DNA of 64,000 bases from an uncultured bacterium (GCA_963827235.1 CAWHAE010000018.1:64001-128000), one strand, 5' to 3'; counted from the stretch's first letter, positions 4,716 through 43,369 are shown. Numbers and translations: made by a program. The notes: a model not told the origin generated them from the sequence alone.

Positions 4716-5891
4716 ATGGTTATGACGTCGAAACAACGATTCCTGGCAGCACTGCAGCGGCAGCAGCCCGATCGGCTGCCCGTGACTACCCACCACCTGA
4801 TGACGAGCTTTCTTGCGAAGACCAATCACGACATGTCCACTCAGGAGTTCTTCGATCGGTTCGAGTTGGATCCGATCCTCTGGATCGCTCCGATGAAGCC
4901 GGCGACCGGCCAGTACTTCGACCCCGAACACCCGTCCGCCGACTTGACGGTGTTCGGGGAGGCCCGCCGCATCGTCAGCGACCAATGGCGCGTCTACTCC
5001 GAGGATCTGCCCGGTCACGAGTTCGCGACCACCCGCTTCAACTACGTCACACCCAAGGGCACGCTCACCTCGGTCGTGCAATCCAACGAGCACACGACCT
5101 GGGTCACGGAATACCCGATCAAGCGCAAGGAGGACATTGAGCTCATTGCCGAGTTCATGCCGGTGCCGGTCTGCGACGTCGAGGCTGTCAACAAGGCGGC
5201 CGATTCGTTTGGCTCACGCGGCCTCGTACGCGGCGCCGGCTTGTACTTTGACATCTTCTACGGACAGCCGGGCTGCTGGCAAGATGCTGCTTGCCTGATG
5301 GATATCCAGGAGCTCATCCTGGCCACCTTCGACGATCCGGACTGGGTGCACGAGCTGCTGGCCATTCTGCAGGGCATGAAGAAGACGTACATCGCCTCGC
5401 TGAAAGGTGCGCGCTACGACCTGATCGAGCTTGGCGGCGGCGCCGCCTCGTCTACCGTCATCTCGCCAAAGGTGTTCGACCGCTTCGTCGCCCGCTACGA
5501 TGGCGAGCTTATCGATGCCTTCCATGCCGCCGGCCAGCGAGTCGTCTATCACACCTGCGGCGGCATGATGCCTCTGCTGGAGCACGTGGTGTCGATGCAG
5601 CCGGACGCCATGGAGACGTTCACGCCCCCGGCCATGGGCGCCGACGTCGACCTGGCAGAAGCCAAGCGGAGAATCGGAGACAAAGTCTGCCTGATCGGCG
5701 GCTTTGACCAGTTCCATTTCTTCGTCGGCTGCACGCCCGAAGAGACCAGAGCCGAAGTGCGCCGCTGTTTCGAGGCGGCCGGCGGGGGAGGCGGCTATAT
5801 CCTGTGCCCGTCGGACCACTTCTTCGAGGCCGATCCGGAGCTGCTGCAGGCCTTTTCCGCGGAAGCGCGCGCCTGCACCTACTCCGGCTGA
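4716..5891 (+). CDS. Uroporphyrinogen decarboxylase/MtaA-CmuA-like TIM-barrel protein
   Basis: MTSKQRFLAAL...QPDRLPV N-terminus, ISPKVFDRF, YHTCGG, GTPEE-like CTPEETRAEV, GGGYIL. Confidence 0.85.
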   Translation: MVMTSKQRFLAALQRQQPDRLPVTTHHLMTSFLAKTNHDMSTQEFFDRFELDPILWIAPMKPATGQYFDPEHPSADLTVFGEARRIVSDQWRVYSEDLPGHEFATTRFNYVTPKGTLTSVVQSNEHTTWVTEYPIKRKEDIELIAEFMPVPVCDVEAVNKAADSFGSRGLVRGAGLYFDIFYGQPGCWQDAACLMDIQELILATFDDPDWVHELLAILQGMKKTYIASLKGARYDLIELGGGAASSTVISPKVFDRFVARYDGELIDAFHAAGQRVVYHTCGGMMPLLEHVVSMQPDAMETFTPPAMGADVDLAEAKRRIGDKVCLIGGFDQFHFFVGCTPEETRAEVRRCFEAAGGGGGYILCPSDHFFEADPELLQAFSAEARACTYSG

Positions 5892-28882: not shown

Positions 28883-30846
28883 ATGAACGTGGCGCTGATT
28901 GGCGCAGAGCTGGAAGAGAACCTTGGTCTGCGCTACATCGCATCGTCGCTCGAGGCCAGGGGCCACCAGGTAGCCATCGTTCCCTTCAACTTCGCACAAG
29001 ACGCCGAACGGGCGGTTCGAGAGACGATCGCGCTCGCCCCGGACATCGCCGGCTTGTCCATGGTCTTTACGTCCCGCGGCCGCGAATTCTGCGATCTGGC
29101 GGCACAGCTTCGCGAGGCAGGATTCCGCGGTCACCTGATCGCCGGTGGACTGTTCGCCTCATTCAACTGCGAGAAGCTGTTGCGCGAGTTTCCTGCCTTC
29201 GACTCGGTCGCACTCGGCGAAGGCGAGGAGCTGATGTGCCTGCTGGCCAATCGCCCGGATCGGCTCGACACGGTGCCGGGTCTCTGCTATCGCGGGTCTG
29301 ACGGCCGGCCGTCGATCAACCCTGCCGTCGGCAATCCGGACAAGCTCGACGAGCTGCCGTGGCCCAAGCGCACCACGTTTCACAGCTACTTCGACAAGCC
29401 GATCGCGAGCGTCCTGACCAGCCGCGGCTGCTGGCGGGATTGCGCGTTCTGCAGCATCAACGCCTGGTCGGATCGCAGCGGCGGCAAGAAGTTCCGCACC
29501 CGCGGCGTCGACAACATCGTGGAGGAAGTGGCCGACCTCTATCACCGGCACGGCGTGCGCATCTACAACTTTCAGGATGACAACTTCTTCCTGCCCAACG
29601 CCGAAAGGGCCGTGGAGCGATTCGCCGCGATTCGCGATGGACTGGCAGACGCCGGCGTCACCGGCATCGCCATGGCCGTCAAGGCGCGGCCGACAGCATA
29701 ACCGAGGAGTCCATACGCATCCTCGACGGGCTCGGCCTGTTCCGCGTCTTTCTTGGCGTGGAAAACGCCTCCGAAAACGGCCTCCGCAACCTGAATCGCA
29801 AGAACACGCTCGCCCAGATATTGAACGCGCTCCGCATCCTGAACGACTTCGGCGTCCACGTGGCCTACAACCTGCTGATGTTCGAGCCGGATACGTCGAT
29901 GGACGATATTCTGGTCAATCTGCGCTTCATGGGGCGCCACGTCGAGAACCCCTTCAACTTCTGCCGTGCCGAGGCCTATCCGGGTACCGGGCTGGAATCC
30001 AAGCTGATGACGGAAGGATGTCTGCTCGGCGATGCCTTCGGCTATGACTACCGTCTGAAAGATCCGCGATCGGAGGCGTTCCACCAGATCGCCAACTATG
30101 CCTTCTTCGACCGCAACTTCAGCGACTTCGGCCTGCACTACTTCAATATGCAGGTCGACTTCTACTTTCAGTTGCTGCGCCGGTTCTATCCCGACACGCT
30201 GAGCGAGACATTGCGCGCCGGCGTGCGAAGCTTCATCAAAGAGACAAACCTGGACACCTACTGGCGGCTCTGCGGGATCTACGACTTCTTGGTGGACTGC
30301 GATCCGGGCGACACCGCCTCCCTGCGCGCCTTCGCCGGCCGCGTGCGCTACCACGTGGACCTCGGCAGCGCCGATCTGCTCACCCGTGGCGAACGCGTGC
30401 TGAACCGGATTGAAGACGCGTACGCCCGCAAGTCGGCCTGGCTTCCGCGGCAGGCCCCAGAGGTCGACCAGCCGGCGACCCCTGCATTTGCCCCACATGG
30501 CGATAGGGGCAGCATCCCGGGCGTCACCGGTCGCCAAGCGTGGACAGGGCTTGTTCAAGGCGGTCCCGTACCTCGCCGGCCAGACCCGCGATTTCCGGCC
30601 GCGGCATCAGTGCCAGCACGGCCCGAGGGTCCATCGCCTCCACTACCGTGTCCTCGCCGTCCTCATACAGCACGACGTTGCATGGCAGCAGCAGGCCCAC
30701 TTCGAGGTCGACCGTCAGAGCGCGATGCGCGAACGGCGGGTTGCAGGCGCCCAGGATGGTGTAGCGGCGGAAGTCGACTCCCAGCTTCTCCTTCATCGTC
30801 TTCCGCACGTCGATCTCGGTCAGCACGCCGAACCCCTGCTCCTTGA
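28883..30846 (+). CDS. Cobalamin-binding radical SAM protein, frameshift near 29691; 3' end uncertain
   Basis: EENLGLRYIAS B12 domain, SRGCWRDCAFC (CxxxCxxC), FQDDNF. Adding one base gives KARPDSITEE..FLGVENAS. The tail overlaps DUF302 on the opposite strand. Confidence 0.85.
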
Positions 30847-30934
30847 GCGCCGCGCGCGTCTGCTCCATTACCGTCTCGAACGGCATGGCCAGCCGCCGGC
30901 CGAAACCCAGCGTACTCGTGATCTCACTCGCCAT
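30524..30934 (-). CDS. DUF302 domain protein
   Basis: LKEQGFGVLTEIDV..YTILGACNP..VGLLLPCNVVLYE. Confidence 0.92.
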   Translation of the reverse strand: MASEITSTLGFGRRLAMPFETVMEQTRAALKEQGFGVLTEIDVRKTMKEKLGVDFRRYTILGACNPPFAHRALTVDLEVGLLLPCNVVLYEDGEDTVVEAMDPRAVLALMPRPEIAGLAGEVRDRLEQALSTLGDR

Positions 30935-31170
30935 GGTCGTTGCCCTCTCCTCCAACCCCGATCTCTACCGTTCGGTCGCGTCGTCGCGGCCGCGCCCTGG
31001 ACTGAGACTGGTTCCCGCTTGTCTGAACCGTAGCCGTTGAGGCGATGCATCGGGTGTTCCGACGTCATCACCTGCTCCTCCGGACCCGGCACCGCGGGCA
31101 ACGCTCGACCGTGCCGGTCGCTCCATGCATATGCCTGAGCGTGCACGACCCGGCAGGCTGTGCCACGCGA

Positions 31171-31518
31171 CTATTGCATCGGCAGTCCAGCCCGGCGCCA
31201 GGCGCTGGTACCGCCCTGCACGTTGCGCACGTCGCTGAACTCCGCCTTCTGCAACAGGGATTGCGCCGAGCGGCTGCGGCCCCCGCTCTGGCATATCACC
31301 AGGACGGTCTTGTCCGGCTTCAGCTCACCCATCCGCTGCTTGAGTTGGCTGAGCGGGATGCTCTTGGCTCCCCGAGCGTGGCCGGAACGGAACTCCGAAG
31401 GCTCTCGCACGTCAATCAGCAGTGCCCCTTCTTGCTGCAGCGTGCGTGCTTGGGTGACGTCGACGCTGGTGGTCGGATCTGAGGTGCCGAGAAGAGCGGA
31501 GAACAGGTCTTTGAACAT
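31171..31518 (-). CDS. Single-domain rhodanese (sulfurtransferase)
   Basis: LIDVREPSEF..GH..IPL..VICQSGGRS..GGTSAW..GLP. Confidence 0.93.
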   Translation of the reverse strand: MFKDLFSALLGTSDPTTSVDVTQARTLQQEGALLIDVREPSEFRSGHARGAKSIPLSQLKQRMGELKPDKTVLVICQSGGRSRSAQSLLQKAEFSDVRNVQGGTSAWRRAGLPMQ

Positions 31519-31521
31519 GGC

Positions 31522-31980
31522 TCAGACCGCCGCCATCGCTGCGGCCGGCACGGCCACCGCTACCTCGTCCTCGACCAGGCTGAACGACGTGCGAATCGCG
31601 GCCATGCCGCGGATGGTCGCGGCGACGGAGCAGTACTTGTTCAGCGAAAGGTCGATGGCCCGCTCGACCGCCTGGGCATTGAGCCGGCGGCCCCGCACCT
31701 CATAGTGCAGGTGAATGTCGGTAAATGCCCAAGGCGGATCGGCCCGCTGCTCGCCGGTCGCCGAGATGCGCAACCCGCTGAACGCCTGCCGCTTCTTATG
31801 CAGGATGTCGACGGTGTCAACCGCCGTGCAGCCGGCGAGCGCCACGAGCAAGAGCTCGCTCGGCTTGAACCCCTGCCATGCCTCGCGGCCGGCAGGCGCA
31901 TCGAGCACGATGCTGTGCCCGCCGCTGCCGGAGCCGACGAACTGCTGTCCCTGTACCCACGTGATACTGACTTCGCCCAT
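31522..31980 (-). CDS. OsmC/YhfA-like peroxiredoxin
   Basis: PSELLLVALAGCTAVD..ILHKKRQ..SLNKYCSV. Confidence 0.9.
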   Translation of the reverse strand: MGEVSITWVQGQQFVGSGSGGHSIVLDAPAGREAWQGFKPSELLLVALAGCTAVDTVDILHKKRQAFSGLRISATGEQRADPPWAFTDIHLHYEVRGRRLNAQAVERAIDLSLNKYCSVAATIRGMAAIRTSFSLVEDEVAVAVPAAAMAAV

Positions 31981-32041
31981 TGCTTTGAATCTCCTGAATA
32001 TCGTGCAGCTGGCTGTGCGCTCCCGGCGCCCTTACATGTCC

Positions 32042-32071
32042 AGTATATTCCATACCTGGGTAGGGTATCAA
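32042..32071 (-). promoter_or_regulatory. sigma70 promoter of osmC-rhodanese with an embedded CsoR/CstR-type operator
   Basis: Minus strand TTGATA-N18-TATACT. ATACC-tgggtag-GGTAT inverted repeat at 32052-32068. Confidence 0.65.
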
Positions 32072-32144
32072 GCCCATATGAGTGAGCCCAGTCTCGCGCG
32101 GGAAAGCAGCGATGCACCTCGTCGCGGTGCGCCGGGCGAACGGC

Positions 32145-32621
32145 TCAGATGAACAGATTGACGTTTGCCTCGTCCGCTTCGCCCAGGTAGGTCGCCACGC
32201 CCGCGAACTCGAGGCCGTCGATAAGCTCCTCCTCCTTGAGGCCCATGACGTCCATGGACATGGTGCAGGCAACCAGCTTTATACCTTGCTCCTTGGCCGT
32301 GGCCAGCAGCTCCTCCAGCGAGGAGACGTTCTGCCCCTTCATCACCTTCTTCATCATCATGGCGCCCATGCCGCCATAGTTCATCTTCGAGAGACCGAGA
32401 CGCCTGGGGCCGCGGGGCATCATCATGCCGAACATGGCCTGCAGGAAGCTCTTCTTTGCCTTCACCTTCTGGCTCTTGCGCAGGATGTTCAGGCCCCAGA
32501 ACGTGAAGAACATGGTCACTTCATCGCCCATGGCGGCGGCGCCGTTGGCGATGATGAATGCCGCCAGCGCGCGGTCCAAATCCCCGCTAAAGACAATCAG
32601 CGTTTTCTTGTCGGTGCGCAC
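32145..32621 (-). CDS. DsrE2-like (DsrE/F/DrsE_2) sulfur-relay protein
   Basis: GTG after AAGGAGG. IVFSGDLDRALAAFIIANGAAAMG..MFFTFWGL..LVACTMSMDVMG..AGVATYL..NLFI. Confidence 0.92.
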   Translation of the reverse strand: MRTDKKTLIVFSGDLDRALAAFIIANGAAAMGDEVTMFFTFWGLNILRKSQKVKAKKSFLQAMFGMMMPRGPRRLGLSKMNYGGMGAMMMKKVMKGQNVSSLEELLATAKEQGIKLVACTMSMDVMGLKEEELIDGLEFAGVATYLGEADEANVNLFI

Positions 32622-32650
32622 CGTATCCTCCTTCTCCGATTTCGCGACGT

Positions 32651-33610
32651 CTAGGCGCTGTAAGCGCGCCGGAGATACTCCGAGATGTCCGTGATTCTCA
32701 TGCTCTGGCCGGCCGCCTTCCGCAGATTGACCAGGCAGAGCGGGCACATGGTCACTGCTTCCGGAGCTGCCCGGCGAAGCTGCTCCACCCGCTTCTGCGC
32801 CGTGGCCGCCGCCTTGCCCGGGTACAGTGACTCGAGCGGGCCGCCGCAGCACCAGGTGAAGCGCCGGCTGTTCTCCGGCTCCACAACCGCCGCTCCTGCC
32901 TGCTCGAGCAGCCGTCGAGGCTCGTCGATGACGCCTTCATAGCGGGCGAACACGCACGAGTCGTGCAGCACCATGCTCGCGTTCAGCGGCGAGCGTACGG
33001 CCGGTGCTCGCTCGGCAAGCACCTCCAGGTAGCTGCGCACGCGCACGTCGTAGACCGGCACGAGGCGCGGATACACCGATCGCAGCATGGTGGTCGTGTG
33101 CGGATCGACGGTGATCACGTTTCTCACCCCGTACCGCTTGAACAGGCGGGCGATCCGGCGGGCCTGTACGCGCACCGCCGCGTCGACTCCGAGATCGTGG
33201 ACCAGGGCTCCCGAGTACAGCTCTTCCTCGTAGAGATAGCCGAAGGTGACGCCGGCCGCGCGGAGCAGCCGCGCCACGTTCACGAGCACGTCGTCGTGCG
33301 CTTCACGGCTGCGAGCCGGCGGGCGCCCCATGAACGCCGCGACATTCACGAACCGGTTTATCCGTCTGCCCAGTGGCGTGAGGCCCGCCAGCGGCGACCC
33401 GCCGAGCCGCTCCTGCAGAGCGACCATGTGCTCGATATAGGGGATGAGCTGGTACATCAGGCCGGTGTACAGCACTGTCTCTCCGCCGCGCGGCAGATCG
33501 AGGCCGTGGGCCCATCTTGTGGCGCTTCGCCCGGAAATAGGCATCACGGACTTGCGCAGGCGCAGGTTGTCCGCCAGGATGCCTATGACGTCGCCCTTTT
33601 CCAGTGGCAT
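32651..33610 (-). CDS. HdrB/HdrD-like CCG-domain Fe-S protein (one intact CCG domain)
   Basis: C-terminal HDSC..CCGG..CPLC. The N-terminal domain is Cys-less (YTG..ELYSG..VDPH). Confidence 0.85.
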   Translation of the reverse strand: MPLEKGDVIGILADNLRLRKSVMPISGRSATRWAHGLDLPRGGETVLYTGLMYQLIPYIEHMVALQERLGGSPLAGLTPLGRRINRFVNVAAFMGRPPARSREAHDDVLVNVARLLRAAGVTFGYLYEEELYSGALVHDLGVDAAVRVQARRIARLFKRYGVRNVITVDPHTTTMLRSVYPRLVPVYDVRVRSYLEVLAERAPAVRSPLNASMVLHDSCVFARYEGVIDEPRRLLEQAGAAVVEPENSRRFTWCCGGPLESLYPGKAAATAQKRVEQLRRAAPEAVTMCPLCLVNLRKAAGQSMRITDISEYLRRAYSA

Positions 33611-33619
33611 GGCGCTCTC

Positions 33620-33928
33620 CTATACCGAAAAGACCGCGCGGTTGACGAAGCGTCGCAGCACGCGCACGTTCTCCGCGATGTGCACGCCGGCCGGGCAGTT
33701 GGCCTCGCAAAGCTTGCACAGCAGGCAGGAGTACACTGCTTCGTCTTCCTGCAGCACCTTGTCCTCCATGCCGAGCAACACGTAGCGGAACAGCTTGCGC
33801 GGCAGCACCGCGATACCCATGGGGCACACGGCACTGCACACGCCGCAGTTCATGCACGCCGATGCGTTGAACTCGGCGGACCTGCTGCCGACCCTCTCCG
33901 CGAGGTCCGGACGCAGAAGCACGGTCAT
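33620..33928 (-). CDS. HdrC-like 2x[4Fe-4S] protein
   Basis: CMNCGVCSAVCP and CLLCKLCEANCP. Confidence 0.88.
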   Translation of the reverse strand: MTVLLRPDLAERVGSRSAEFNASACMNCGVCSAVCPMGIAVLPRKLFRYVLLGMEDKVLQEDEAVYSCLLCKLCEANCPAGVHIAENVRVLRRFVNRAVFSV

Positions 33929-34173
33929 GTCTCCTCCCTGTTCAGAGCGCGGTACTGGTAGTAGCCCTCGTCGGTGGGCTCCGCGAGCGGCACGACGTAG
34001 CCGTACTTGCGCATGCCCATCATCCAGAACATCACCTCGCCTGCCGGCCGTCCCACGACCGCCGCGACCTCGGGCACGGTAAGTGGCCCATCCTGTAGAG
34101 CCTGCAGTATGGGACGGCGCATCAGGTGCTCGTCCCGGATGACCTCGCGCATGTCCCGGATTTCGGCGCTCAT
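33925..34173 (-). CDS. Small winged-helix-like protein (82 aa) inside the Hdr cluster
   Basis: ATG 34173 overlaps the hdrA stop (ATGA). ILQALQDGPLTVPEVAAVVG..VMFWMMGMRKYG..YYQY. Confidence 0.8.
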   Translation of the reverse strand: MSAEIRDMREVIRDEHLMRRPILQALQDGPLTVPEVAAVVGRPAGEVMFWMMGMRKYGYVVPLAEPTDEGYYQYRALNREET

Positions 34174-35906
34174 GACGCCACCCCTGCCAGCAAGCCGTCT
34201 ATCATCCCTTTGACCTGTCCGTCCGTGTATCCCTGAAGGTCGATGGCGTCCAGCGGGCACATGGGGACGCAGCCGCCGCAGCCCTTGCAGCCGGCCTGAT
34301 CGATGACGGCGGTTTCCTTGCCGTCCACGACCGCCATGCTGATCGCCGCGTACGGGCAGCCATCGCGGCACTTTCCGCACCAGGCGCAGGCGTCGGCATT
34401 GACCCTGGCCACCTGCGGATCGAGCTGGGCCACGCGCTTCATGAGCACGGCGGCGCTCTGACTCACCGCGGCAAGGCCCGACGCCACGCTTTCCGCCGAG
34501 TTCTTCGGTCCCTGGCAGGCGCCGCACACGTAGACGCCGTCGACCACCGTCTCCACCGGCCGCAGCTTGGGGTGGATTTCGTTGAAGAATCCGTCCGTGC
34601 CCACCGGCAGCTTGAGCACCTTGACCAGATCCTCGACCGGCCGGGGCACCATGCCGGTGACCAACACCGCCAGATCGGCGCCGATCGCGACCTCCTCGCC
34701 GTCGCTGAGCAGATCGCGCACGGTCACGACCAAGCCGCCGGAGCCGTCGCGCTCCACAGTTGGCGGCGCCTGGTCAGCGAACTTGAGGTACAGCGACCCC
34801 TTCTCGCGCGACTCGGCGAACATCGTCTCGTACCGCCCGTACGTACGCATGTCGCGGTACAGATGATACTGGTGCGCTCCGGCGTCCCTGGACGCCACCT
34901 CGAGCGACGCGTGTACGGCGGCGGCGCAGCAATATCGGGAGCAGTAGGAATGCCCGTGATTCGTTCCGGCTTCCTGCCTGCTGCCCACGCAGTAGATATA
35001 GGCGACGCTTCGCACCGGCCTGCCGCGATAGATCGGCGGGCCGGATGATGCGTCGAGCATTCTCTTGAATTCGGGCAGAGTGAGCACGCCGTCGACGCCG
35101 TAGCCGAGCTCGCCGATCTCCGGCTGGTAAGTATCGAATCCGGTTGCCACGATGATGGCACCCACCTGCACGTGAATCGTGTCCGGCCTTTCGCCGTTCA
35201 GGCGAATGCCGGCCTGGTAGTTGCCGAAGCTGCCCGACTTGCTCACCAGCTCGGCGGCGGTGAATATCGTGACCTCCGGCCGCCGGCGCACGGCGTCCAT
35301 CAGCCTTTCGACCAGCTCACGGCCGTTCTTGCCGTGCGGATACATGCCGGCGAAGCCGCCGACCCAACCACCCAGCCGCTCTGCCTTTTCCACCAGGTAG
35401 ACCGCCAGGCCGAGTTCGGCCAGGGCCAAGGCCGCACGCAGTCCGGCAATGCCGCCGCCGATCACCACCGCGCCAGGCACCGTCTCCACGGAAAGCGGCT
35501 CCAGCGGCGTGCTGAGACGCGTGCGGCCGACCCCGCCGCGCACCAGCCTCGCCGCCTTGATCGTGGCCCCGGCCTTGTCGTCGGTGTGAGCCCACGAGCA
35601 CTGCTCGCGAATGTTCACCTGCGTGTACTGGTACGGATTCAGTCCGGCCCGCCGCGCTACCTCCCGGAAGGTCGTGGTGTGCAGCTTGGGCGAGCACGAG
35701 GCAACCACGATGCCGTCGAGATGCTGCTCCTGAATGTCGCGCACGATGTCCTGTTGCGTGGCATCGGAGCAGGTGAACATCGCCGTGCGGGCCACCGTCA
35801 CCCCCGGCTCACCCTGCACCTCTGCCACCACGCGCTCCACGTCGACGTAGTCCGAGATGTTCCCGCCGCAGTGGCAAATATAGACGCCGATTCTCCGCTC
35901 GCTCAT
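34170..35906 (-). CDS. hdrA: Heterodisulfide reductase subunit A-like flavoprotein
   Basis: RIGVYICHCGGNI, ASCSP, NIREQCSW, VIGGGIAG, YCVGSR..CSRYCC, HPKLRPVET..GACQGPK, and a C-terminal 2x[4Fe-4S]. Confidence 0.92.
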   Translation of the reverse strand: MSERRIGVYICHCGGNISDYVDVERVVAEVQGEPGVTVARTAMFTCSDATQQDIVRDIQEQHLDGIVVASCSPKLHTTTFREVARRAGLNPYQYTQVNIREQCSWAHTDDKAGATIKAARLVRGGVGRTRLSTPLEPLSVETVPGAVVIGGGIAGLRAALALAELGLAVYLVEKAERLGGWVGGFAGMYPHGKNGRELVERLMDAVRRRPEVTIFTAAELVSKSGSFGNYQAGIRLNGERPDTIHVQVGAIIVATGFDTYQPEIGELGYGVDGVLTLPEFKRMLDASSGPPIYRGRPVRSVAYIYCVGSRQEAGTNHGHSYCSRYCCAAAVHASLEVASRDAGAHQYHLYRDMRTYGRYETMFAESREKGSLYLKFADQAPPTVERDGSGGLVVTVRDLLSDGEEVAIGADLAVLVTGMVPRPVEDLVKVLKLPVGTDGFFNEIHPKLRPVETVVDGVYVCGACQGPKNSAESVASGLAAVSQSAAVLMKRVAQLDPQVARVNADACAWCGKCRDGCPYAAISMAVVDGKETAVIDQAGCKGCGGCVPMCPLDAIDLQGYTDGQVKGMIDGLLAGVAS

Positions 35907-38602
35907 ACAGGTATCCTGGCTTTTTCTAGGTGCGCCGCGGCCTGTGCTACCGCGGCTCCCGCGTGCAGAATGGAGTCGGGGATGTCCTTTGCCCCGGAGG
36001 CCGCGCCGGCCACGAACACGCCGGGCATGCCCGTCCAGCCGGGGTTCATGTCCTCGTCGGGCTCGTCTATGTACCCGTAACGATCGGGCTTCAGCTCGCC
36101 GTCCGGGAAGATCTGCCGTGGGTCCAGGTTGGGCTGAACGCCCACAGCCAGCACCACGAGGTCGTACTCGGCCTCGGTGACGACGCCCCCGTGGTCGACG
36201 TCCTCGTAATGGAGAATCAGGTTGCCGTCGTCCTTCTCCGTAATCCCGGAGACGCGGCCCTTGACGAACGCGGCGCCCATCGCACTGGCCTGCTGGTAAA
36301 ACTCGTCGTAGCCTTTGCCCACGGCGCGCATGTCGACGTAGTGCACGGTGACGTCGGCAAGCGGCAGCGCACCCATGATCAGTTGGTTCTGCTTGATCGA
36401 GTACATGCAGCAGATCTTGGAGCAAAGGGGGTTCTCGACCGTCAAGTCGCGAGAGCCGGTGCACATGACGAAGGCGATGCGGTCCGGGACCTTGCCGTCG
36501 CCCGGGCGTAGCACCGTGTTGTACGGGCGGGTAGGCGCCAGCAGGCGGTCCATCTGCATGCCCGTGATCACGTTCTTGTACTTGCCGTAGCCGTATTGGG
36601 GCTTGAGGTCGGCAGGAAACAGCTTGAACCCGGTGGAGATAATCACCGCGCCTACCTCGGCCTCGATGTGCCTATCACCCATGCCCAGGTCGATGGCTCC
36701 GGCCGGGCAGGCGTGCACGCACTCGTGGCACTCCGAGCAGACGCCGCAGTCCAGGCATCGCCCGGCGCCGTAGCGCGCCTCGTCTTCGGAGAGCGGCGGC
36801 TCGATCTCCGCGAAATCCGCCGGGCCGGCACTGAGAGCCTTGGGCGCCGGCAGAGGATCGCGGCGCTCGTAGTGCTGCTGGCGGCCGATCACCTCGCCCT
36901 TCTCGATCGGGGGCAGCGAAGGCTCGCGACCGGCCGCTTTGAGATCCTCGCCGCGCAGCCAGCAGTCAATCATGGTAGCAGCGCGCCGGCCTTCGCCGGC
37001 GGCCTGCGTGATCATGGACGGCCCCGACACCACGTCGCCGGCCGCGAAGATGTAGGGCACTTCCGTCTGCAGCGTACGCGGGTTCGCCTGCACGGTGCCG
37101 TTGCGATTGACCGGCAGCGCGGGAGTGAAGGCGCCGCCCTCCGCCAGCATGCCGATCGCCAGGATAACGGCGTCACACGCAAGGTCCTCGCGGGCCGTCT
37201 CGTCGTACTGGGGACTGAATCTGCCCGAGGCATCGAAGACGGCTGTGCAGCGCTGCAGCTCCAGTCCCCGCACGGTTCCGTGTCCGTGGAACCGCCTGAC
37301 GCCCCACGAATGGTGGGGCACGATGCCCTCGGCAAGGGCTTCCTCGACCTCGAACGCGTGCGCGGGCATCTCAGGGCGCGTTTCCAGGCTGACCAGGTGC
37401 ACCGCGCTCGCCCCCAGGCGCCGGGCCGAGCGTGCGGCGTCGATGGCGACGTTGCCGCCGCCAATCACGGCCACGGTCTTGCCCGTCAGGTCGTCCGGCT
37501 GGCCCAGCTTGAGCGCCCGCAAGAAGGCCAGCGCACTGCCGATTCCGGCTTGATCGGCGCCCGGCACCTTGAGGTCGACGGCCTTGTGCGTGCCCGTTGC
37601 CAAAAGGATCGCGTCGTACCCGTCTTGCCTGAGCTCCTCGAGGTTCTCGACCCGCGTGCCCGTCGCCACCTCGATTCCCAATGCCGTCACATTGTCCACG
37701 TCCTGATCGACGACGGCGTTCGGCAGCCGATACTCGGGGATGGCCAGGCGCAGCATGCCGCCCGGACGGGGCGCCGCCTCGAACAGCTTCACACGGTAGC
37801 CCAGTCGCGCTAGTTGCCACGCCGCCGTCAGCCCGGCCGGTCCCGAGCCCACCACGGCCACCGACTTGCCGTTCGGAGCCTGAACAGGTATCCTCTTGCC
37901 GCTGTCGGAGGCGTAATGCGTGTCGGCGACGAACCGCTTGAGCCTGCGAATCGGCACCGGCCCCTCCAGGCTGCCCCGGCTGCAGGCCCCTTCGCAGGGA
38001 GCGTAGCATGCTCGACCGAGACTCCCGACCAGAGGGGTGGCCTCCGCCACGAGAGCGAACGCTTCCTCGTACTTGCCGCTGCGTACCAGCGCCACGTAGC
38101 CGTGGGCCTTGATGCCGGCAGGGCAGTCGAACGTGCAGGGCGACGTGCCTGCTCTCTCGATCACCGCTTTCTTTGGCACGGCCTGCGGGAAGGCAATGTA
38201 GGCCGCCCGGCGAGAGACCATATCGGCATTGAACTGGTCCGGCACGGCAACGCTGCAGACCATCTCACAGTCCCGGCAGCCCGTGCATAGGGCGTCGTCG
38301 ACATAGCGCGCCTTCTGCCGTACGCTTGCCATGAAGCGGCCGCTGCCGTCCCGGCGAATGTGCTCGACCTCGGTGTAGGTCAGCACCGTCACGTTCGGAT
38401 GATGAATGGTGGCACCCATCTTGGGTGTGGAGATGCAGCTCGCGCAGTCCAGCGTGGGGAACACTTTGCTGAGCAGAATCATCCTGCCGCCCACGCTGGC
38501 TTCCCTCTCCACGAGCAGCACCTTGTAGCCCATGTCGCCGAGCTTCAGCGCGGACTCCATACCGCCTATGCCGGCACCGACCACCAGCGCGTCGTAGTCC
38601 AT
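35903..38602 (-). CDS. HdrL-type protein: HdrA core with an inserted GltD-like NAD(P)H-binding flavin module
   Basis: VVGAGIGG..KVFPTLDCASC, CTGCRDCEMVC, SPCTFDCP..GRACYAPCEGAC, VGSGPAG, IGGGNVAIDAAR, RCLDCGVCSEC..CP, CTGSRD..CSKICCMYSIK, GAKDIPDS. Confidence 0.9.
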   Translation of the reverse strand: MDYDALVVGAGIGGMESALKLGDMGYKVLLVEREASVGGRMILLSKVFPTLDCASCISTPKMGATIHHPNVTVLTYTEVEHIRRDGSGRFMASVRQKARYVDDALCTGCRDCEMVCSVAVPDQFNADMVSRRAAYIAFPQAVPKKAVIERAGTSPCTFDCPAGIKAHGYVALVRSGKYEEAFALVAEATPLVGSLGRACYAPCEGACSRGSLEGPVPIRRLKRFVADTHYASDSGKRIPVQAPNGKSVAVVGSGPAGLTAAWQLARLGYRVKLFEAAPRPGGMLRLAIPEYRLPNAVVDQDVDNVTALGIEVATGTRVENLEELRQDGYDAILLATGTHKAVDLKVPGADQAGIGSALAFLRALKLGQPDDLTGKTVAVIGGGNVAIDAARSARRLGASAVHLVSLETRPEMPAHAFEVEEALAEGIVPHHSWGVRRFHGHGTVRGLELQRCTAVFDASGRFSPQYDETAREDLACDAVILAIGMLAEGGAFTPALPVNRNGTVQANPRTLQTEVPYIFAAGDVVSGPSMITQAAGEGRRAATMIDCWLRGEDLKAAGREPSLPPIEKGEVIGRQQHYERRDPLPAPKALSAGPADFAEIEPPLSEDEARYGAGRCLDCGVCSECHECVHACPAGAIDLGMGDRHIEAEVGAVIISTGFKLFPADLKPQYGYGKYKNVITGMQMDRLLAPTRPYNTVLRPGDGKVPDRIAFVMCTGSRDLTVENPLCSKICCMYSIKQNQLIMGALPLADVTVHYVDMRAVGKGYDEFYQQASAMGAAFVKGRVSGITEKDDGNLILHYEDVDHGGVVTEAEYDLVVLAVGVQPNLDPRQIFPDGELKPDRYGYIDEPDEDMNPGWTGMPGVFVAGAASGAKDIPDSILHAGAAVAQAAAHLEKARIPV

Positions 38603-38605
38603 CGC

Positions 38606-39034
38606 CTATTCCTCCTTGGACGGCGCCAGCACGGCGAGCGAATCAGAGAAGTCGCGCATGTAGCTGGTGAACGGCTCCGCGCAGACCGAGCAGATGGCAC
38701 CCATGCGCACGCGCCCAGGATCCAGCCCGTGGTCCCGCAGCAGCGTCTGCGCCTCGGCAATGATACGCGCTGCGCGCTCCGAGCAATCCGGCAGGTACGC
38801 GCACTCGTCGCCGTCGGCGGCAATGAACACTCCATCGCAGCCGTGTTGCAGCGCATACAGCACCCAGGCCGGCTTGATGCCGCTCGTGCATGGCAGGCTA
38901 AGCACCATTACGTTCGGCGAATAGTGCAGATGGGAGCTGCCCGCAAGGTCGATGCCGGGGTCCGAAATGTTGTTGGTCGAGAAGACGAGGATCTTGGGAT
39001 CCGGGGCGGCAGTGGCGTGGAATGGGACGGCCAC
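38606..39034 (-). CDS. mvhD: MvhD/FlpD-like iron-sulfur subunit (variant Cys pattern)
   Basis: PKILVF..DLAG..YSPNV..LPCTSGI..ALQHGCDGVFIA..EC..GLDPGRVRM..ICSVC. GTG start. Confidence 0.85.
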   Translation of the reverse strand: MAVPFHATAAPDPKILVFSTNNISDPGIDLAGSSHLHYSPNVMVLSLPCTSGIKPAWVLYALQHGCDGVFIAADGDECAYLPDCSERAARIIAEAQTLLRDHGLDPGRVRMGAICSVCAEPFTSYMRDFSDSLAVLAPSKEE

Positions 39035-39289
39035 TTACTTCAGCTTCTTGACATAGAGCTTCCAGCTGCCGGCGTCTTCGACTACGCCCAGGAACTCGTG
39101 GCCCATCTTCTTGGCCCAGGCGGGGAGATCCTTCTGCGTGCCCCGGTCGGTCGCCAGAACCTCCATGATCTGCCCGACCTTGACCTCGGCAATGCCCTTC
39201 TTGGCTGCCAGGATCGGCCCCGGGCACGAGGTCCCGCGCGCGTCCACTACCTTGTCGACGTGAATGTTCTGCAGCATGTCCGTGGCCAT
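39035..39289 (-). CDS. tusA: TusA family sulfur carrier
   Basis: VDARGTSCPGPIL..EVLATD.G..DLPAWAKKMGHE. GGGAG RBS. Confidence 0.93.
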   Translation of the reverse strand: MATDMLQNIHVDKVVDARGTSCPGPILAAKKGIAEVKVGQIMEVLATDRGTQKDLPAWAKKMGHEFLGVVEDAGSWKLYVKKLK

Positions 39290-39373
39290 CTCGTCTCACT
39301 CCCTATCGTCGGCTGCCCGAGCGGGCATTTCGCATTGGTACTGAGGATCGACGGTCACATGATGCGCCCAGGG

Positions 39374-39388
39374 TACCGTACCCGGGTA
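39374..39388. promoter_or_regulatory. Second CsoR/CstR-type operator candidate upstream of tusA
   Basis: TACC-gtacccg-GGTA. Its reverse complement matches the site at 32053-32067 at 13 of 15 positions. Confidence 0.5.
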
Positions 39389-39563
39389 GGGCCAAAGGCA
39401 ACGAGTCGGCGGGCCGTTGGTCCCGACTGCGACGCGGCTCCGAGCAATCGGCGAAGCAGGCTGGACAGGGCCGTCCCCGCCTCGCGGGCAGCGAGCCTGG
39501 GACCGTTAGGCGCGCAGACGGCGGCGGAGCCTCGGGCAGGGCGAAGACGCGGACATTCGGCGC

Positions 39564-40598
39564 TTACGGGTTGATGATCACCTTGTTCCGGTCCGGGCTG
39601 GCCATCACCTCCATGGCCTTGTGAATGTCCTGCAGCGGGAAGCGGTGGGAGACGATCTTCTCGATATCCACCAGCCCGGTTTCCATCAGGCGAATAGCGC
39701 TTTGCATGGCGAGTGGCGTGGTGCTGAAGCTGGCGTCCATGCGAGCCTCGAGGAAGTGAGCCAGCCCGCCGTCAAGCTCAAACTTCTCATGTGTGGTGAT
39801 GCCGAACACGTTCCAGTGCGTGCCGCGCCGTAACAGATCGACCATCAGCCTGACCGCTTCTATGGGCCCGGCGGCCTCGACCACCAGATCCGGACCGTTG
39901 GGAATGATGCCGTACACGAGCTTCTTGACCTCCGGGTCGCTCGCGTTGACGGCGTGTGTGGCACCGAGCGTCAGGGCATGCGCGAGGGCGTGGGGACTGG
40001 TGTCCACGGCGATCAGCCTGCCGGCGCCCGCGGCGCGGGCTACCATCAGGCAAAGCAGCCCGATTCCTCCCACGCCGATCACCACGACGTCGTCGCCAAC
40101 TGTCATCTCGCTGTGCTGGATCACGCCCTTCCAGGCACCTGAGAGGGGCTCGGTCTCCGCGGCGGCGTCAAATGAGATGCTGGCCGGCTTGTGGTACAGG
40201 CAGTTCTCCTTGGTCAGCATGTACTCCGCGAAGGCGCCGGGCCAGATGTCCACGGGACCGTCACCGCCCGTGGTGAAGGCGCGCTCGCAGTAGTGGGACT
40301 TGCCCATGCGGCAGTCGCGGCAGAAGCCGCAGTACCCCGAGGGCGAGCAGATCACTTCGTCCCCGACCTTGAAGTGATCGACGCCGGGACCGATTTCGGC
40401 CACCACGCCGGAGGGCTCGTGCCCGGCGATGAACGGGAAGCTCACGTTGCGCCGGATGCCCTTGACGGCCTTGTAGTCGGTAGCACAGATGCCGCACGAC
40501 CTGACTTTCACCAGCACGGTCCCCGGCACGGTGGGCTCGGGAATGGGAACATCTTCCAGTCGCAGGTCGTTGAAATCGTGGAGGACGGCGGCAAGCAT
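39564..40598 (-). CDS. Zinc-dependent alcohol/polyol dehydrogenase (MDR family)
   Basis: CGICATD, GHEPSG, CGFCRDC..C, IGVGGIGL. ATG 40598 after AGGAG. Confidence 0.93.
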   Translation of the reverse strand: MLAAVLHDFNDLRLEDVPIPEPTVPGTVLVKVRSCGICATDYKAVKGIRRNVSFPFIAGHEPSGVVAEIGPGVDHFKVGDEVICSPSGYCGFCRDCRMGKSHYCERAFTTGGDGPVDIWPGAFAEYMLTKENCLYHKPASISFDAAAETEPLSGAWKGVIQHSEMTVGDDVVVIGVGGIGLLCLMVARAAGAGRLIAVDTSPHALAHALTLGATHAVNASDPEVKKLVYGIIPNGPDLVVEAAGPIEAVRLMVDLLRRGTHWNVFGITTHEKFELDGGLAHFLEARMDASFSTTPLAMQSAIRLMETGLVDIEKIVSHRFPLQDIHKAMEVMASPDRNKVIINP

Positions 40599-40665
40599 CG
40601 GTCTCTCCTGTCCTGTCTCGGGGACTTCACCGGAAAGCCGGCCGGACCACCCGGTCGCGTCCATC

Positions 40666-40707
40666 CCCGGTAGCTCATAATACCAGCTGGTATTATGAGC
40701 TACCGGG
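40666..40707. repeat. Perfect 42-bp palindrome overlapping the dehydrogenase promoter
   Basis: cccggtagctcataataccag|ctggtattatgagctaccggg. Confidence 0.97.
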
Positions 40708-40720
40708 TTGAGCTTGTCAA
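40692..40720 (-). promoter_or_regulatory. sigma70 promoter of the Zn dehydrogenase
   Basis: Minus strand TTGACA-N17-CATAAT. Confidence 0.8.
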
Positions 40721-40777
40721 GGCAGCGCCGATCGGCGCACGCCTGGTCAACCTGCTGTCGCGCCCGGTGGTCTTCGC

Positions 40778-42052
40778 TCACTGCAACGGATAGGCGCGAG
40801 AGCGGCGAACCGCGTCGTAGAGCGCCAGCAGGTTCTCCGTCGGAATGCCTGCCTGCACGTTGTGAATGGTGGTGAACACGAAGCCTCCGCCCGGCCCAAA
40901 GACGCGCATGCGCTCCCGCACCATCGCCCGCACTTCTTCCGGCGTGCCGAAGGGCAGGACGCGCTGCGTGTCGATGCCGCCGCCCCACAGCGTTACCCGC
41001 TGTCCGTACCTGGCCTTGACCGCCGCCGGATCCATGTCGGCGGCCGACGTCTGGATCGGGTTGACGATGTCGAAGCCCGCCTCCACGATGTCGTCCAGCA
41101 GCCGCCAGACGGAGCCGCAGGAGTGAATGAAGGTCTTCCAGCCCGTCTGCTGGTGGATCCAGCCGTTCAGTCGGGTGTGGAACGGCTTGAACAGCTCCCG
41201 GTACATCTTCGGCGAGACCAGGGGCCCGCTCTGTGCGCCGAAGTCCGTGCCGGTGACGAACGCCACGCTCACGCGGTCGCCCACGACCTGGTAGATGCGC
41301 GCCAGGTTCCGCAGCGCGATCTCCGTCTGGCGATCGAACAGCTCGTACACGAAGTCACGGCGAGCGCTCAGGCTCATGTACCATTCCGCCACGCCACGGA
41401 TGCCTCTGGGATGCTTCAGTCCCATGCCGCAGACCCGCGTGATGTCGCCGAGACTCGTACCGCCGAACGAGCCCACGATGGCCCGGCCGGTGGCTGCGAG
41501 GCGCTCCGTCTCGTCGCGCAGGAAGCCGAGGTCCTGGTCGGTGATCGGGCCCACTTCCTCCAGATTGTCGTCGACCGTGAGGGTTTCCTCGTCAATCGGT
41601 TCCTGCCGCTCGATGGCGTCGAAGTACAATCCACCGCTCGGCATGCGCGCCGAGGGCGGCGCCGAGCGGTCTCCCTCCGGATACATCAGCAGATCGCCGT
41701 TCGGCTCCCGCTCGGTGTTGAACCCTGCGGGAACCAAAGTCGGCGTGCCGTCGAACGCCGTCCACGGCTTCCAGCCTTCGTTGCGATAGCCGTACCGGGT
41801 GACAGGCAGCGTCAGGCCGACGACATCCACCCCGAGCGCATCCAGCAGGTCCTGCGCGATCTCGCCCAGCATGTGATAGGGATCGATCACCTTGACCGGG
41901 GTGCCGGGTGGATCGAGTCTCAGGGCCTGACGCAGCAGGTAGACGGAGTTTACTACCATGCCGGAGGCGCCGGTGGCGCCCAGATCGAGCGGCACCATGT
42001 CGGGCTCCTTGTGGTCGAGTGCCAGTGCGACCCGCTCTAGCGACGTGTGCAT
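40778..42052 (-). CDS. Uroporphyrinogen decarboxylase/methyltransferase-like protein
   Basis: TSLERV..ALDHKEPD.VPLDLG, GTDFGAQSGPLVSP, FIHSCGS, NPIQTSA, WGGGIDTQ..LPFGTPEEV, GGGFVFTTIHN. Confidence 0.88.
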   Translation of the reverse strand: MHTSLERVALALDHKEPDMVPLDLGATGASGMVVNSVYLLRQALRLDPPGTPVKVIDPYHMLGEIAQDLLDALGVDVVGLTLPVTRYGYRNEGWKPWTAFDGTPTLVPAGFNTEREPNGDLLMYPEGDRSAPPSARMPSGGLYFDAIERQEPIDEETLTVDDNLEEVGPITDQDLGFLRDETERLAATGRAIVGSFGGTSLGDITRVCGMGLKHPRGIRGVAEWYMSLSARRDFVYELFDRQTEIALRNLARIYQVVGDRVSVAFVTGTDFGAQSGPLVSPKMYRELFKPFHTRLNGWIHQQTGWKTFIHSCGSVWRLLDDIVEAGFDIVNPIQTSAADMDPAAVKARYGQRVTLWGGGIDTQRVLPFGTPEEVRAMVRERMRVFGPGGGFVFTTIHNVQAGIPTENLLALYDAVRRSRAYPLQ

Positions 42053-42328: not shown

Positions 42329-43090
42329 TCAGCTGTCGGTGAACGATGCCGCGCTCTCCGGCTCCTGATCGATCCTGAACCCCTGGGCCAGGAAATCGCC
42401 CTCGGTATGGGCGAGATGGACGCGCATGGCGTCGCGTGCTGCCTCGTAGTCGTGCCGCTCGATCGCATGCAGAATCGCGGCGTGCTCGTGCACGGTGCGG
42501 TCGATGGAGACGGCACCCCGGAAGCTCGCGATGCGGCTGGCACGCAAGAGGTCGGTGATTGGATGAGTCACCGTCGTGAGCAGCCGATTGCGGGCCGCGC
42601 GAATGATCAGCTGGTGGAACTCGAAATCCGCCTGCACGTAACCCTCGGGCGACCCGGGCTGCGTCTCCAGTTCGTGCACCGAACGGCTCATCGCGGCGTG
42701 ATCGGAGGGGAGAGAGCGCTGCGCGGCCAGTCCTGCTACCTCGACCTCCAGCAGCCTGCGCACCTCCAGCAGCTCGGCGAGCGTGACGCCTTCGCGCCGG
42801 AGCAGCAGCTCGAGGAAGTCGCGCATCGGCCCGCCAGAAGGGCTGCCCACCAGGACGCCGGTGCCCTGCCTGATGGTCACGATTCCCCGCGCGGCCAGCA
42901 CCTGCAGCGCCTCGCGGATGACCGTGCGGCTGACGCCCAGCATGCTGCAAAGCTCGCGCTCGGAGGGCAGGAGCGTGCCCGTGGCGAAGCGCTCCTGGGT
43001 AATCATATCGATGAGCTTACCGACCACCTGCCGCGACAGGGTCTCGCCGGTGGCGCGCTTTCGGCGCTGCATCGGCTCGATCTCGGCCAT
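42329..43090 (-). CDS. GntR family, FadR subfamily transcriptional regulator
   Basis: LPSERELC..LGVSRTVIREAL..QGTG. FCD domain LLEVRRLLE..DFEFH..N..EH..I..AMRVHL. Confidence 0.95.
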   Translation of the reverse strand: MAEIEPMQRRKRATGETLSRQVVGKLIDMITQERFATGTLLPSERELCSMLGVSRTVIREALQVLAARGIVTIRQGTGVLVGSPSGGPMRDFLELLLRREGVTLAELLEVRRLLEVEVAGLAAQRSLPSDHAAMSRSVHELETQPGSPEGYVQADFEFHQLIIRAARNRLLTTVTHPITDLLRASRIASFRGAVSIDRTVHEHAAILHAIERHDYEAARDAMRVHLAHTEGDFLAQGFRIDQEPESAASFTDS

Positions 43091-43297
43091 GTCCGCCCTC
43101 CTCCGTAGGCCACTGCCGAAAGTGCATCGGCCCGGTCCGCCCTCTCCGTGGCGGCCATCCCCGTTCGCGCGGCCGGCCGTGCGGATCGCTCCCCAGCGGC
43201 AGGCGCGAAGCGCCATACTGGCAAGGAGCCGGCCTGCCTCGGGCGCCGCCCGGCCACTCGCGCGATCCTCAAGGCCGCAGCTCCCACTGTAACAGGT

Positions 43298-43327
43298 ATG
43301 ATAGCCCGGTTCTACCTCCGTTGTCAA
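43298..43327 (-). promoter_or_regulatory. sigma70 promoter of the FadR gene
   Basis: Minus strand TTGACA-N18-TATCAT. Confidence 0.65.
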
Positions 43328-43369
43328 AGTCACGCTTGGTAGGTTCTGGTAGTTGATGCCCCGAACCGA

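Follow-up and report, generated by a model that had tools for sequence, protein, structure and literature searches.

In methanogenesis, as in sulfate reduction and sulfur oxidation, complexes of the heterodisulfide reductase (Hdr) type have a central role, yet only a minority of the Hdr-like complexes of bacteria have a known substrate. The methanogen complex HdrABC-MvhAGD is represented by the structures 5ODC and 8RVU. The sulfur-oxidising sHdr systems are of type I, with the layout hdrC1B1A-hyp-C2B2 and the lipoate-binding protein LbpA, or of type II, with EtfAB/EMO, and sHdr genes are described as inevitably linked to LbpA (PMC6067878). In Desulfobacterium autotrophicum, HdrL1-3 are encoded in loci with fdh or dsrABC genes (PMC2702500). 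In Syntrophobacter fumaroxidans, HdrABC/HdrL (Sfum_0819-0824) was observed only in the presence of sulfate, and its proposed substrate is DsrC (PMC5947623). HdrA of type III is known as HdrA9/10 of ANME-1 and Bathyarchaeota (PMC12054007). Here we describe an Hdr-related operon from an uncultured bacterium, located at positions 30524-39289 of a 64,000-nucleotide stretch of DNA (GCA_963827235.1 CAWHAE010000018.1:64001-128000; hereafter the window). It comprises eleven genes on the minus strand in the order tusA, mvhD, hdrL, hdrA, wHTH (winged helix), hdrC, ccg, dsrE2, osmC, rhodanese and DUF302 (Table 1). A sequence-only reading of the window had presented them as a candidate NADH-linked persulfide reductase, and all eleven genes were confirmed in place and on that strand by Pfam, NCBIfam and inspection of translations and start codons. 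Full-text literature searches turned up no description of a tusA-mvhD-hdrL-hdrA-wHTH-hdrC-ccg-dsrE operon, although supplementary tables may list such loci.

The eight genes from tusA to dsrE2 form a widely conserved operon that joins two small sulfur carriers to an NAD(P)H-linked, Hdr-related iron-sulfur flavoenzyme. We tentatively propose, and give the proposal close to an even chance, that the core complex uses NAD(P)H to reduce sulfane sulfur, carried as a persulfide or polysulfide by TusA, the DsrE-family protein or both, to sulfide in the cytoplasm. The persulfide substrate and the direction of the reaction are suggested by gene content and conserved gene order. MvhD, HdrL, HdrA, HdrC and the one-cluster, HdrB-like CCG subunit would form a soluble complex together with the winged-helix protein, which may be a small subunit or a regulator. 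The most likely role would be the oxygen-independent removal or use of cytoplasmic sulfane sulfur.

Conservation of the gene order carries much of this proposal. A genome scan yielded 47 loci, whose open reading frames (ORFs) were all scored with the eleven window proteins; a CCG score of at least 300 bits defined 36 loci as orthologous and left 11 as non-orthologous. The order tusA-mvhD-hdrL-hdrA-wHTH-hdrC-ccg is kept in the orthologous loci across at least seven bacterial phyla. Genes for the winged-helix protein, HdrC and a DsrE-family protein are present in all 36 loci, hdrA in 34, hdrL in 33, and tusA and mvhD in 31 each. Four of the five loci without tusA stop at a contig edge (L001, L014, L020, L023), and tusA is thus found in 31 of the 32 loci whose upstream DNA is on the contig. 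The fifth, L031:5387-11451, is a truncated operon that has only wHTH-hdrC-ccg-dsrE2, with ccg split in two ORFs, and directly follows ArsA and ACR3-type arsenic genes. The sulfur carriers are therefore conserved beside homologous Hdr genes across phyla, and the linkage on which the sequence-only reading depended stands. Its inclusion of osmC, rhodanese and DUF302 in the unit does not, since these occur in one, one and none of the 36 loci, respectively, and are local additions.

The hosts span Bacillota, Actinomycetota, Pseudomonadota and other groups. They include Desulfotruncus, Desulfoscipio, Desulfofundulus, Symbiobacterium and metagenome-assembled genomes (MAGs) of Actinomycetota, and further Zixibacteria, Ignavibacteriales, Gemmatimonadales, Betaproteobacteria, Rhodomicrobiaceae, a Spirochaetia MAG and a Phycisphaerae MAG. 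Within the phylum of the window's host, an ortholog was found in 5 of 201 sampled genomes (the host genome G000 included), and in one of four other genomes of the same genus. That congeneric relative has the eight core genes and a CsoR-like gene and lacks osmC, rhodanese and DUF302. At locus L050, a rhodanese gene lies about 5 kb downstream of the cluster and one DUF302 copy lies beside a CsoR-like gene. Transposase genes flank some loci. This patchy distribution is as expected for a transferable accessory module. Desulfotruncus, Desulfoscipio and Desulfofundulus are strict anaerobes, whereas the window's host has a haem-copper oxidase (profile search) and gave no dsrA match above the cut-off (best 23.2 bits), which argues that the function is independent of both Dsr and oxygen. 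Relatives of the CCG protein are numerous, with 1896 matches among 8000 scored candidates in public data and 125 representatives at E <= 1e-30 in a representative library.

Both carriers keep their active cysteines. The TusA score (Table 1) exceeds the Pfam cut-off of 28.6 bits; with 52.4 bits against the NCBIfam equivalog cut-off of 78, the protein is not an equivalog of E. coli TusA. Its orthologs have 82-88 residues (84 in 26 of 31), and all 31 keep the motif ...ARG(T/V/A)(S/A)CPGP.... DsrE2 matches the Protein Data Bank (PDB) entries 3pnx (E 2.4e-34) and 2qs7 (E 3.6e-19), and the cysteine of its VACTMS motif aligns with both. It stays below the NCBIfam DsrE2 cut-off (106.6 against 210 bits), and by its sequence it is classed as a DsrE2B-like protein of the PF13686 family with a conserved cysteine. 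The DsrE-family gene is of the window's DsrE2 type in 27 of the 36 loci, and nine loci have only a PF02635-type DsrE gene directly after the CCG gene; these are mostly from Zixibacteria and Ignavibacteriales, with one Phycisphaerae MAG and one unclassified bacterium. Eight loci whose operon ends with PF02635 DsrE (L017-L020, L022, L024, L026 and L027, from Zixibacteria, Ignavibacteriales and the unclassified bacterium) also share a neighbourhood, up- or downstream: a PF13189 cytidylate-kinase-like gene in six loci, a sigma-54 PAS activator in six and DUF2173 in seven, with an ArsR gene directly before tusA in six.

The host genome contains, outside the window, a canonical hdrC-hdrB-hdrA-mvhD-mvhG-mvhA set (G000:C16:662000-680000, locus L048); genes for a hydrogenase protease and for another [NiFe] hydrogenase, which has NAD-binding and Fe-S subunits, lie nearby, as does hypF. 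The cell thus has two different Hdr-type systems, this one and the tusA-linked operon. The HdrA of the operon resembles methanogen HdrA in having N-terminal, flavin and C-terminal ferredoxin domains, and the best NCBIfam match of its MvhD partner is the MvhD part of HdrA2. Residues 1-234 of HdrA align to 1-234 of 5odc_A and residues 239-573 to 312-650, so that the N-terminal and C-terminal domains are kept, while the inserted ferredoxin domain (5odc_A 235-311) has no counterpart; the same was seen against the host's own canonical HdrA (664 residues). K409 and E356 have been proposed as marks of bifurcating HdrA flavin sites (PMC12054007). Unlike methanogen HdrA, the window HdrA has H at the first and K at the second of these positions. 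In the 33-sequence HdrA alignment, window included, the K409 position is H in 29 and F in 4, and the E356 position is mostly K/R, with few others.

HdrL is a second HdrA-like protein, which the methanogen system does not have. It consists of the HdrA flavin core split by a GltD/NfnB-like NAD(P)H-FAD module: residues 4-150 align to 5odc_A 145-290 and residues 618-898 to 289-571, and residues 154-628 match NfnB/GltD-type chains. HdrL lacks the N-terminal domain of HdrA and its C-terminal ferredoxin domain, and keeps the K409 equivalent together with D/E at the E356 position (33/33 sequences). The domain losses of HdrL and HdrA are complementary, and we therefore infer that the two pair as a heterodimer where methanogens have an HdrA homodimer. 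In the insert, the second nucleotide motif reads GGGNxA (GXGXXA) in all of the top eight motif variants of the 33-sequence HdrL alignment. Under the rule that GXGXXA is of the NADP type (PMC12054007), this is a weak hint of NADPH rather than NADH. The pyridine nucleotide link of the sequence-only reading is retained through the NAD(P)H-type module of HdrL, and its choice of NADH is not supported. The known HdrL and type III HdrA loci, compared by description only, are alike in having a GltD domain in the HdrA core, an adjoining mvhD (3 bp upstream here), no hydrogenase and a proposed NAD(P)H link. TusA, DsrE and the winged-helix gene are not mentioned for them in the excerpts consulted (PMC2702500, PMC5947623, PMC12054007), and the locus of S. 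fumaroxidans is described with an extra Fe-S protein.

HdrC has two [4Fe-4S] motifs as in the methanogen complex, and none of the eight cluster cysteines varies among 32 sequences. It is half as long as the host's canonical HdrC (102 against 205 residues), its TIGR03290 score of 53.7 bits is below the cut-off, and NCBIfam QmoC gave 34.7 bits against a cut-off of 300. In two actinobacterial MAGs (L008:9699-10001 and L034:9690-10001), HdrC has extra cysteines (a CCC run) within the second cluster motif. In the CCG protein only the C-terminal of the two CCG motifs of HdrB is intact. Its residues C219, C254, C255, C289 and C292 do not vary across 46 sequences with identities as low as 28%, whereas the N-terminal lobe has no conserved cysteine in these sequences and shows Y/T, YSG and DPH where cysteines would be expected. 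The alignment with the host's canonical HdrB, which has two CCG matches, is limited to the C-terminal motif (E 1e-4). The structural model (pLDDT 92.7) has a two-lobed HdrB-type fold, but its best Foldseek match was EtfD of Mycobacterium smegmatis, 9ojn (E 3.5e-14, TMq 0.71), followed by LutA, 9a6l (E 3.1e-8), and then by HdrB chains (TMq 0.49-0.54; 5odc_B 0.54). The sole PDB sequence match was also 9ojn (E 4.1e-6). EtfD is membrane-bound and works with ETF, and its chain has 1042 residues in the sequence file against 319 for the CCG subunit; LutA works with LutB/LutC, and neither protein is known to be linked to sulfur carriers. The CCG protein named in the sequence-only reading is thus a one-cluster protein whose fold is nearer to EtfD and LutA than to HdrB.

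The winged-helix gene stands between hdrA and hdrC in every orthologous locus. The window copy has no cysteine, and none is conserved across orthologs; eight positions are invariant in 33 sequences, among them R6, E15, T32, P34, W50, Y57 and Y74. In the model (pLDDT 89.7) the protein is a winged helix of minimal size that lacks the helices by which MarR/ArsR proteins dimerise, and fold searches returned generic MarR/ArsR-type matches only. The PDB sequence search gave no meaningful match and no Pfam family was above threshold. A complex prediction for CCG, HdrC and the winged-helix protein, all entered as alignments, scored 0.00 with controls not run, and has no bearing on binding.

With sHdr the operon shares the linkage to TusA and a DsrE-family gene, and a small gene that separates hdrA from the hdrC/hdrB pair (sHdrH and sHdrB2 were compared by gene position only). 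It differs in having one HdrC/HdrB-like pair instead of two, in the presence of MvhD and HdrL, and in a long HdrA (578 residues against about 350 in sHdrA) that matches the methanogen protein 5odc (E 4.4e-111) better than 6tjr (E 2.6e-29). No LbpA or lipoate ligase was found among 54 ORFs of the window or 151 flanking ORFs of the 36 loci (87 from ten loci, and 64 picked from 107 within 2.8 kb of the core elsewhere), all scanned with Pfam; the whole genome was not searched for LbpA. Hydrogenase, formate dehydrogenase, Dsr/Apr and lipoyl-carrier domains were absent from the 54 window ORFs, in agreement with the sequence-only reading, and Dsr, Apr, Sox, SQR, hydrogenase, formate dehydrogenase and lipoyl-protein families were absent from the 151 flanking ORFs. 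The methanogen partners MvhAG and Fdh are thus missing from the operon and the scanned flanks, as are the Pfam families of flxABCD, membrane QmoC and apr of Flx-Hdr and Qmo. Together with the domain alignments and motifs, this gene content sets the system apart, as claimed, from sHdr, methanogen Hdr, Flx-Hdr and Qmo. The scanned flanks hold no other catalytic sulfur enzyme, and the module looks self-sufficient.

In the proposed mechanism, NAD(P)H, probably NADPH, would transfer a hydride to FAD in the GltD/NfnB-like module of HdrL, and the clusters of HdrL would pass the electrons on to its HdrA-type flavin. From the HdrL/HdrA heterodimer, a mimic of the methanogen HdrA homodimer to which MvhD would be attached, electrons would move to the two [4Fe-4S] clusters of HdrC and from there to the CCG subunit with its single noncubane [4Fe-4S] cluster. 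By two successive one-electron transfers, this cluster might cleave the carrier persulfide at its S-S bond, giving sulfide and the carrier thiol. DsrK of DsrMKJOP is a single-CCG-cluster subunit that acts on a protein-bound trisulfide, and is thought to act on the DsrC trisulfide in a like manner. Npsr and the CoA-persulfide reductase of CstR regulons clear persulfides with pyridine nucleotides under a persulfide-sensing repressor, and are single flavoproteins of another family. These serve as working analogies only, and homology of the CCG protein with DsrK does not go beyond the CCG motif (NCBIfam DsrK 22.1 bits against a cut-off of 400).

CsoR, ArsR and sigma-54 activator families include the known persulfide sensors CstR, SqrR/BigR and FisR. 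Within 9 kb, CsoR-family genes were found in 9 of the 36 loci, ArsR-family genes in 13 and sigma-54 PAS activators in 8, six of the last together with DUF2173. The CsoR-family neighbours are mostly divergent from tusA in Bacillota, and one beside a copper ATPase looks like a true CsoR. The CsoR-like copies share a C...CH pattern, which differs from the C-H-C of copper CsoR and from the CsoR-family chain 7mq1, which we take to be a persulfide sensor; assignment of these neighbours as CstR-type repressors was therefore rejected, leaving family membership only. ArsR-family neighbours are often directly upstream. Most ArsR-like copies have two conserved cysteines (in Zixibacteria, Ignavibacteriales and Actinomycetota) and match SmtB and HlyU better than SqrR/BigR. 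As a sign of persulfide sensing, these neighbours are suggestive only. Accessory genes related to sulfur are sporadic: besides the TauE/SafE genes named below, they comprise rhodanese (L001, L050), thioredoxin (L008), OsmC (L027, L032) and DUF302 (L050).

Reduction of carrier sulfur is favoured because the operon is found in strict anaerobes as well as aerobes, because the lipoate machinery of sHdr is missing from the window and the scanned flanks, because the CCG subunit has one cluster as in DsrK-type trisulfide sites, and because thiol-based regulator families adjoin. All parts are present with cofactor motifs intact, and with no other catalytic partner conserved, electron exchange between NAD(P)H and carrier sulfur is the simplest reading. 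Several observations weigh against it. The fold of the CCG subunit is nearest to EtfD and LutA, neither of which is a disulfide reductase, and it has one cluster where HdrB uses two. The CsoR-like regulators lack the cysteine pattern of chain 7mq1, and no CsoR, ArsR or sigma-54 regulator adjoins the operon in the window. TauE/SafE sulfite-exporter genes lie near four loci (L009, L033, L034, L050). The standard potentials of NAD(P)H and sulfur/sulfide are close, and the driving force would be small; this gap also argues against the further idea that NADPH electron pairs are split between carrier sulfane sulfur at the CCG subunit and ferredoxin at the C-terminal ferredoxin domain of HdrA. The K409 and acidic-356 signature of HdrL and this domain of HdrA, both retained, leave room for such bifurcation, but we regard it as improbable.

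The sulfite exporters would suit the opposite direction, in which carrier sulfane sulfur is oxidised in an sHdr-like manner to sulfite or a bound intermediate and electrons pass to NAD(P)+, perhaps with reduced ferredoxin (confurcation). TusA and DsrE-family genes beside Hdr-like genes are otherwise a hallmark of the sulfur-oxidising systems sHdr and rDsr (PMC11094781), the order of hdrA, small gene, hdrC and hdrB echoes the hdrA-hyp-hdrC2-hdrB2 half of shdr (HdrCBAHypHdrCB in PMC6397845), and the host genome, with its oxidase, is aerobic-capable. We nevertheless consider oxidation unlikely, given the lack of lipoate proteins in the window and the scanned flanks, the single HdrC/HdrB-like pair with its single noncubane cluster, the long methanogen-type HdrA and the presence of the operon in strict anaerobes that include sulfate reducers. 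Reduction of NAD(P)+ by sulfane sulfur is also thermodynamically hard. The same exporters could fit reductive cleavage of a thiosulfonate, with TusA/DsrE loaded from thiosulfate or tetrathionate and giving sulfite and persulfide or sulfide, which would make the operon a cytoplasmic thiosulfate-reducing or disproportionating module. Desulfofundulus thermobenzoicus carries the operon (L013), and a paper on thiosulfate disproportionation in this species is cited in PMC4911364. In Metallosphaera, DsrE3A and TusA carry thiosulfonate (PMC4175335), but the DsrE genes of the operon are of DsrE2 type or plain DsrE type and are not established as DsrE3A, and no thiosulfate importer (YeeE/YedE) was found in the scanned flanks; this is the reading to which we give least credence.

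The substrate might also not be carrier sulfur at all. The operon would then encode a module, linked to NADPH, that transfers or bifurcates electrons to another acceptor, for example ferredoxin, a small disulfide or, as in LutA/EtfD-type systems, an organic acid, with TusA and DsrE serving maturation, regulation or protection. The likeness of the CCG fold to EtfD and LutA suggests this, as does its nearest sequence outgroup. The 11 non-orthologous loci comprise ten archaeal or Dehalococcoidia relatives (29-40% identity) and one broken copy (L035); those of the ten whose neighbours were inspected stand beside LutB-like (LUD + Fer4) or FAD-oxidase (GlcD-like) genes and not beside Hdr genes, which is also a point against carrier sulfur reduction. 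The distant archaeal homologs had been tried as sHdrB2 of Sulfolobales-type shdr clusters; this was rejected, and they are LutA/GlcF-like proteins beside LUD-domain or FAD-oxidase genes. The suggestion that the CCG protein itself is orthologous to sHdrB2 was dropped. HdrL/MvhD modules elsewhere are found with formate dehydrogenase, DsrAB and pyruvate:ferredoxin oxidoreductase genes (PMC2702500, PMC5947623). On the other hand, two carrier families with conserved active cysteines are kept across phyla, and no other substrate-specific enzyme is conserved in the scanned flanks. A substrate other than carrier sulfur therefore seems rather improbable to us.

The eight core genes are packed with overlaps of 4 bp or gaps of at most 29 bp: tusA and mvhD are adjacent, hdrL/hdrA, hdrA/wHTH and wHTH/hdrC overlap by 4 bp (ATGA), and gaps of 3, 9 and 29 bp separate mvhD/hdrL, hdrC/ccg and ccg/dsrE2. 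The tight coupling holds for these eight genes and not for the tail, where the gaps are 164 bp (dsrE2-osmC), 3 bp (osmC-rhodanese) and about 236 bp (rhodanese-DUF302). A promoter and terminator scan of 30000-40000 gave one promoter-like site, in the dsrE2-osmC gap, no more than shuffled sequences give. Upstream of tusA lies a 19-bp near-palindrome, a candidate operator, at a locus without the regulator genes that adjoin the operon elsewhere; its motif was not found in three relatives (L049-L051).

Table 1. Genes of the tusA-linked Hdr operon and a candidate operator, with positions in the window.
Feature	Position	Strand	Length (aa)	Evidence
tusA	39035..39289	-	84	Pfam TusA PF01206, 84.8 bits; CPGP active-site cysteine
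mvhD-like [2Fe-2S] electron-transfer protein	38606..39034	-	142	Pfam FlpD PF02662, 98 bits
hdrL	35903..38602	-	899	Pyr_redox_2, 152.8 bits, and Fer4_20
hdrA	34170..35906	-	578	methanogen-type HdrA, 5odc_A E 4.4e-111
small winged-helix gene (wHTH)	33925..34173	-	82	weak Pfam HTH_20, E 6.5e-4
hdrC-like	33620..33928	-	102	Pfam Fer4_17/Fer4_8; two CxxCxxCxxxC(P) motifs
CCG gene (HdrB-like)	32651..33610	-	319	one Pfam CCG domain, 38.8 bits, residues 214-297
dsrE2-type sulfur carrier	32145..32621	-	158	Pfam DrsE_2 PF13686, 227.8 bits
osmC-family, local accessory	31522..31980	-	152	Pfam OsmC, 62.2 bits
single-domain rhodanese, local accessory	31171..31518	-	115	Pfam Rhodanese, 71.7 bits
DUF302 gene, local accessory	30524..30934	-	136	Pfam DUF302, 91.2 bits
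19-bp near-palindrome, candidate operator	39368..39386			about 80-100 bp upstream of the tusA start; arms 89% complementary

The window has a G+C content of 66% and is part of contig C18 of an 8.0-Mb genome in 21 contigs (completeness 95.9%, contamination 9%). Of its ORFs, 54 were scanned in two batches (22 + 32), and several had no Pfam match; the 32 of the second batch have unrelated functions, among them a CoA-transferase, an S8 protease, transporters and sensor kinases. A short way upstream of the operon, a gene of the URO-D family (methyltransferase-like; 40778-42052, minus strand) lies between a zinc alcohol dehydrogenase gene (39564-40988) and a GntR/FCD regulator gene (42329-43333), and the window holds a second URO-D-family gene at 4716-5891 (plus strand). 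An ORF at 28883-29701 (plus strand) has a B12-binding domain and ends with a partial Radical_SAM match that covers only positions 1-74 of the 166 in the profile; its extension meets 9 stop codons, and a B12-radical SAM gene that is frameshifted or truncated is a possible explanation. At 17047-19932 (minus strand), a 961-residue GGDEF-EAL protein carries a hemerythrin domain at its C terminus and is possibly a cyclic di-GMP enzyme that senses oxygen or iron.

This Hdr-type operon includes the genes of its likely substrate carriers, which accompany it from phylum to phylum, and therefore the question of its substrate is directly testable with few recombinant proteins. If carrier sulfur is reduced with NAD(P)H, the operon would provide an oxygen-independent way of handling reactive sulfur species and, where Dsr is lacking, might supply sulfide. 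Its one-cluster CCG subunit and asymmetric HdrL/HdrA pair would also bear on the working of noncubane clusters and bifurcating flavins. Should bifurcation, improbable as we consider it, take place, this would be a membrane-independent, energy-saving sulfur reduction in which protein persulfides act as a bacterial 'heterodisulfide', spread by gene transfer across many phyla.

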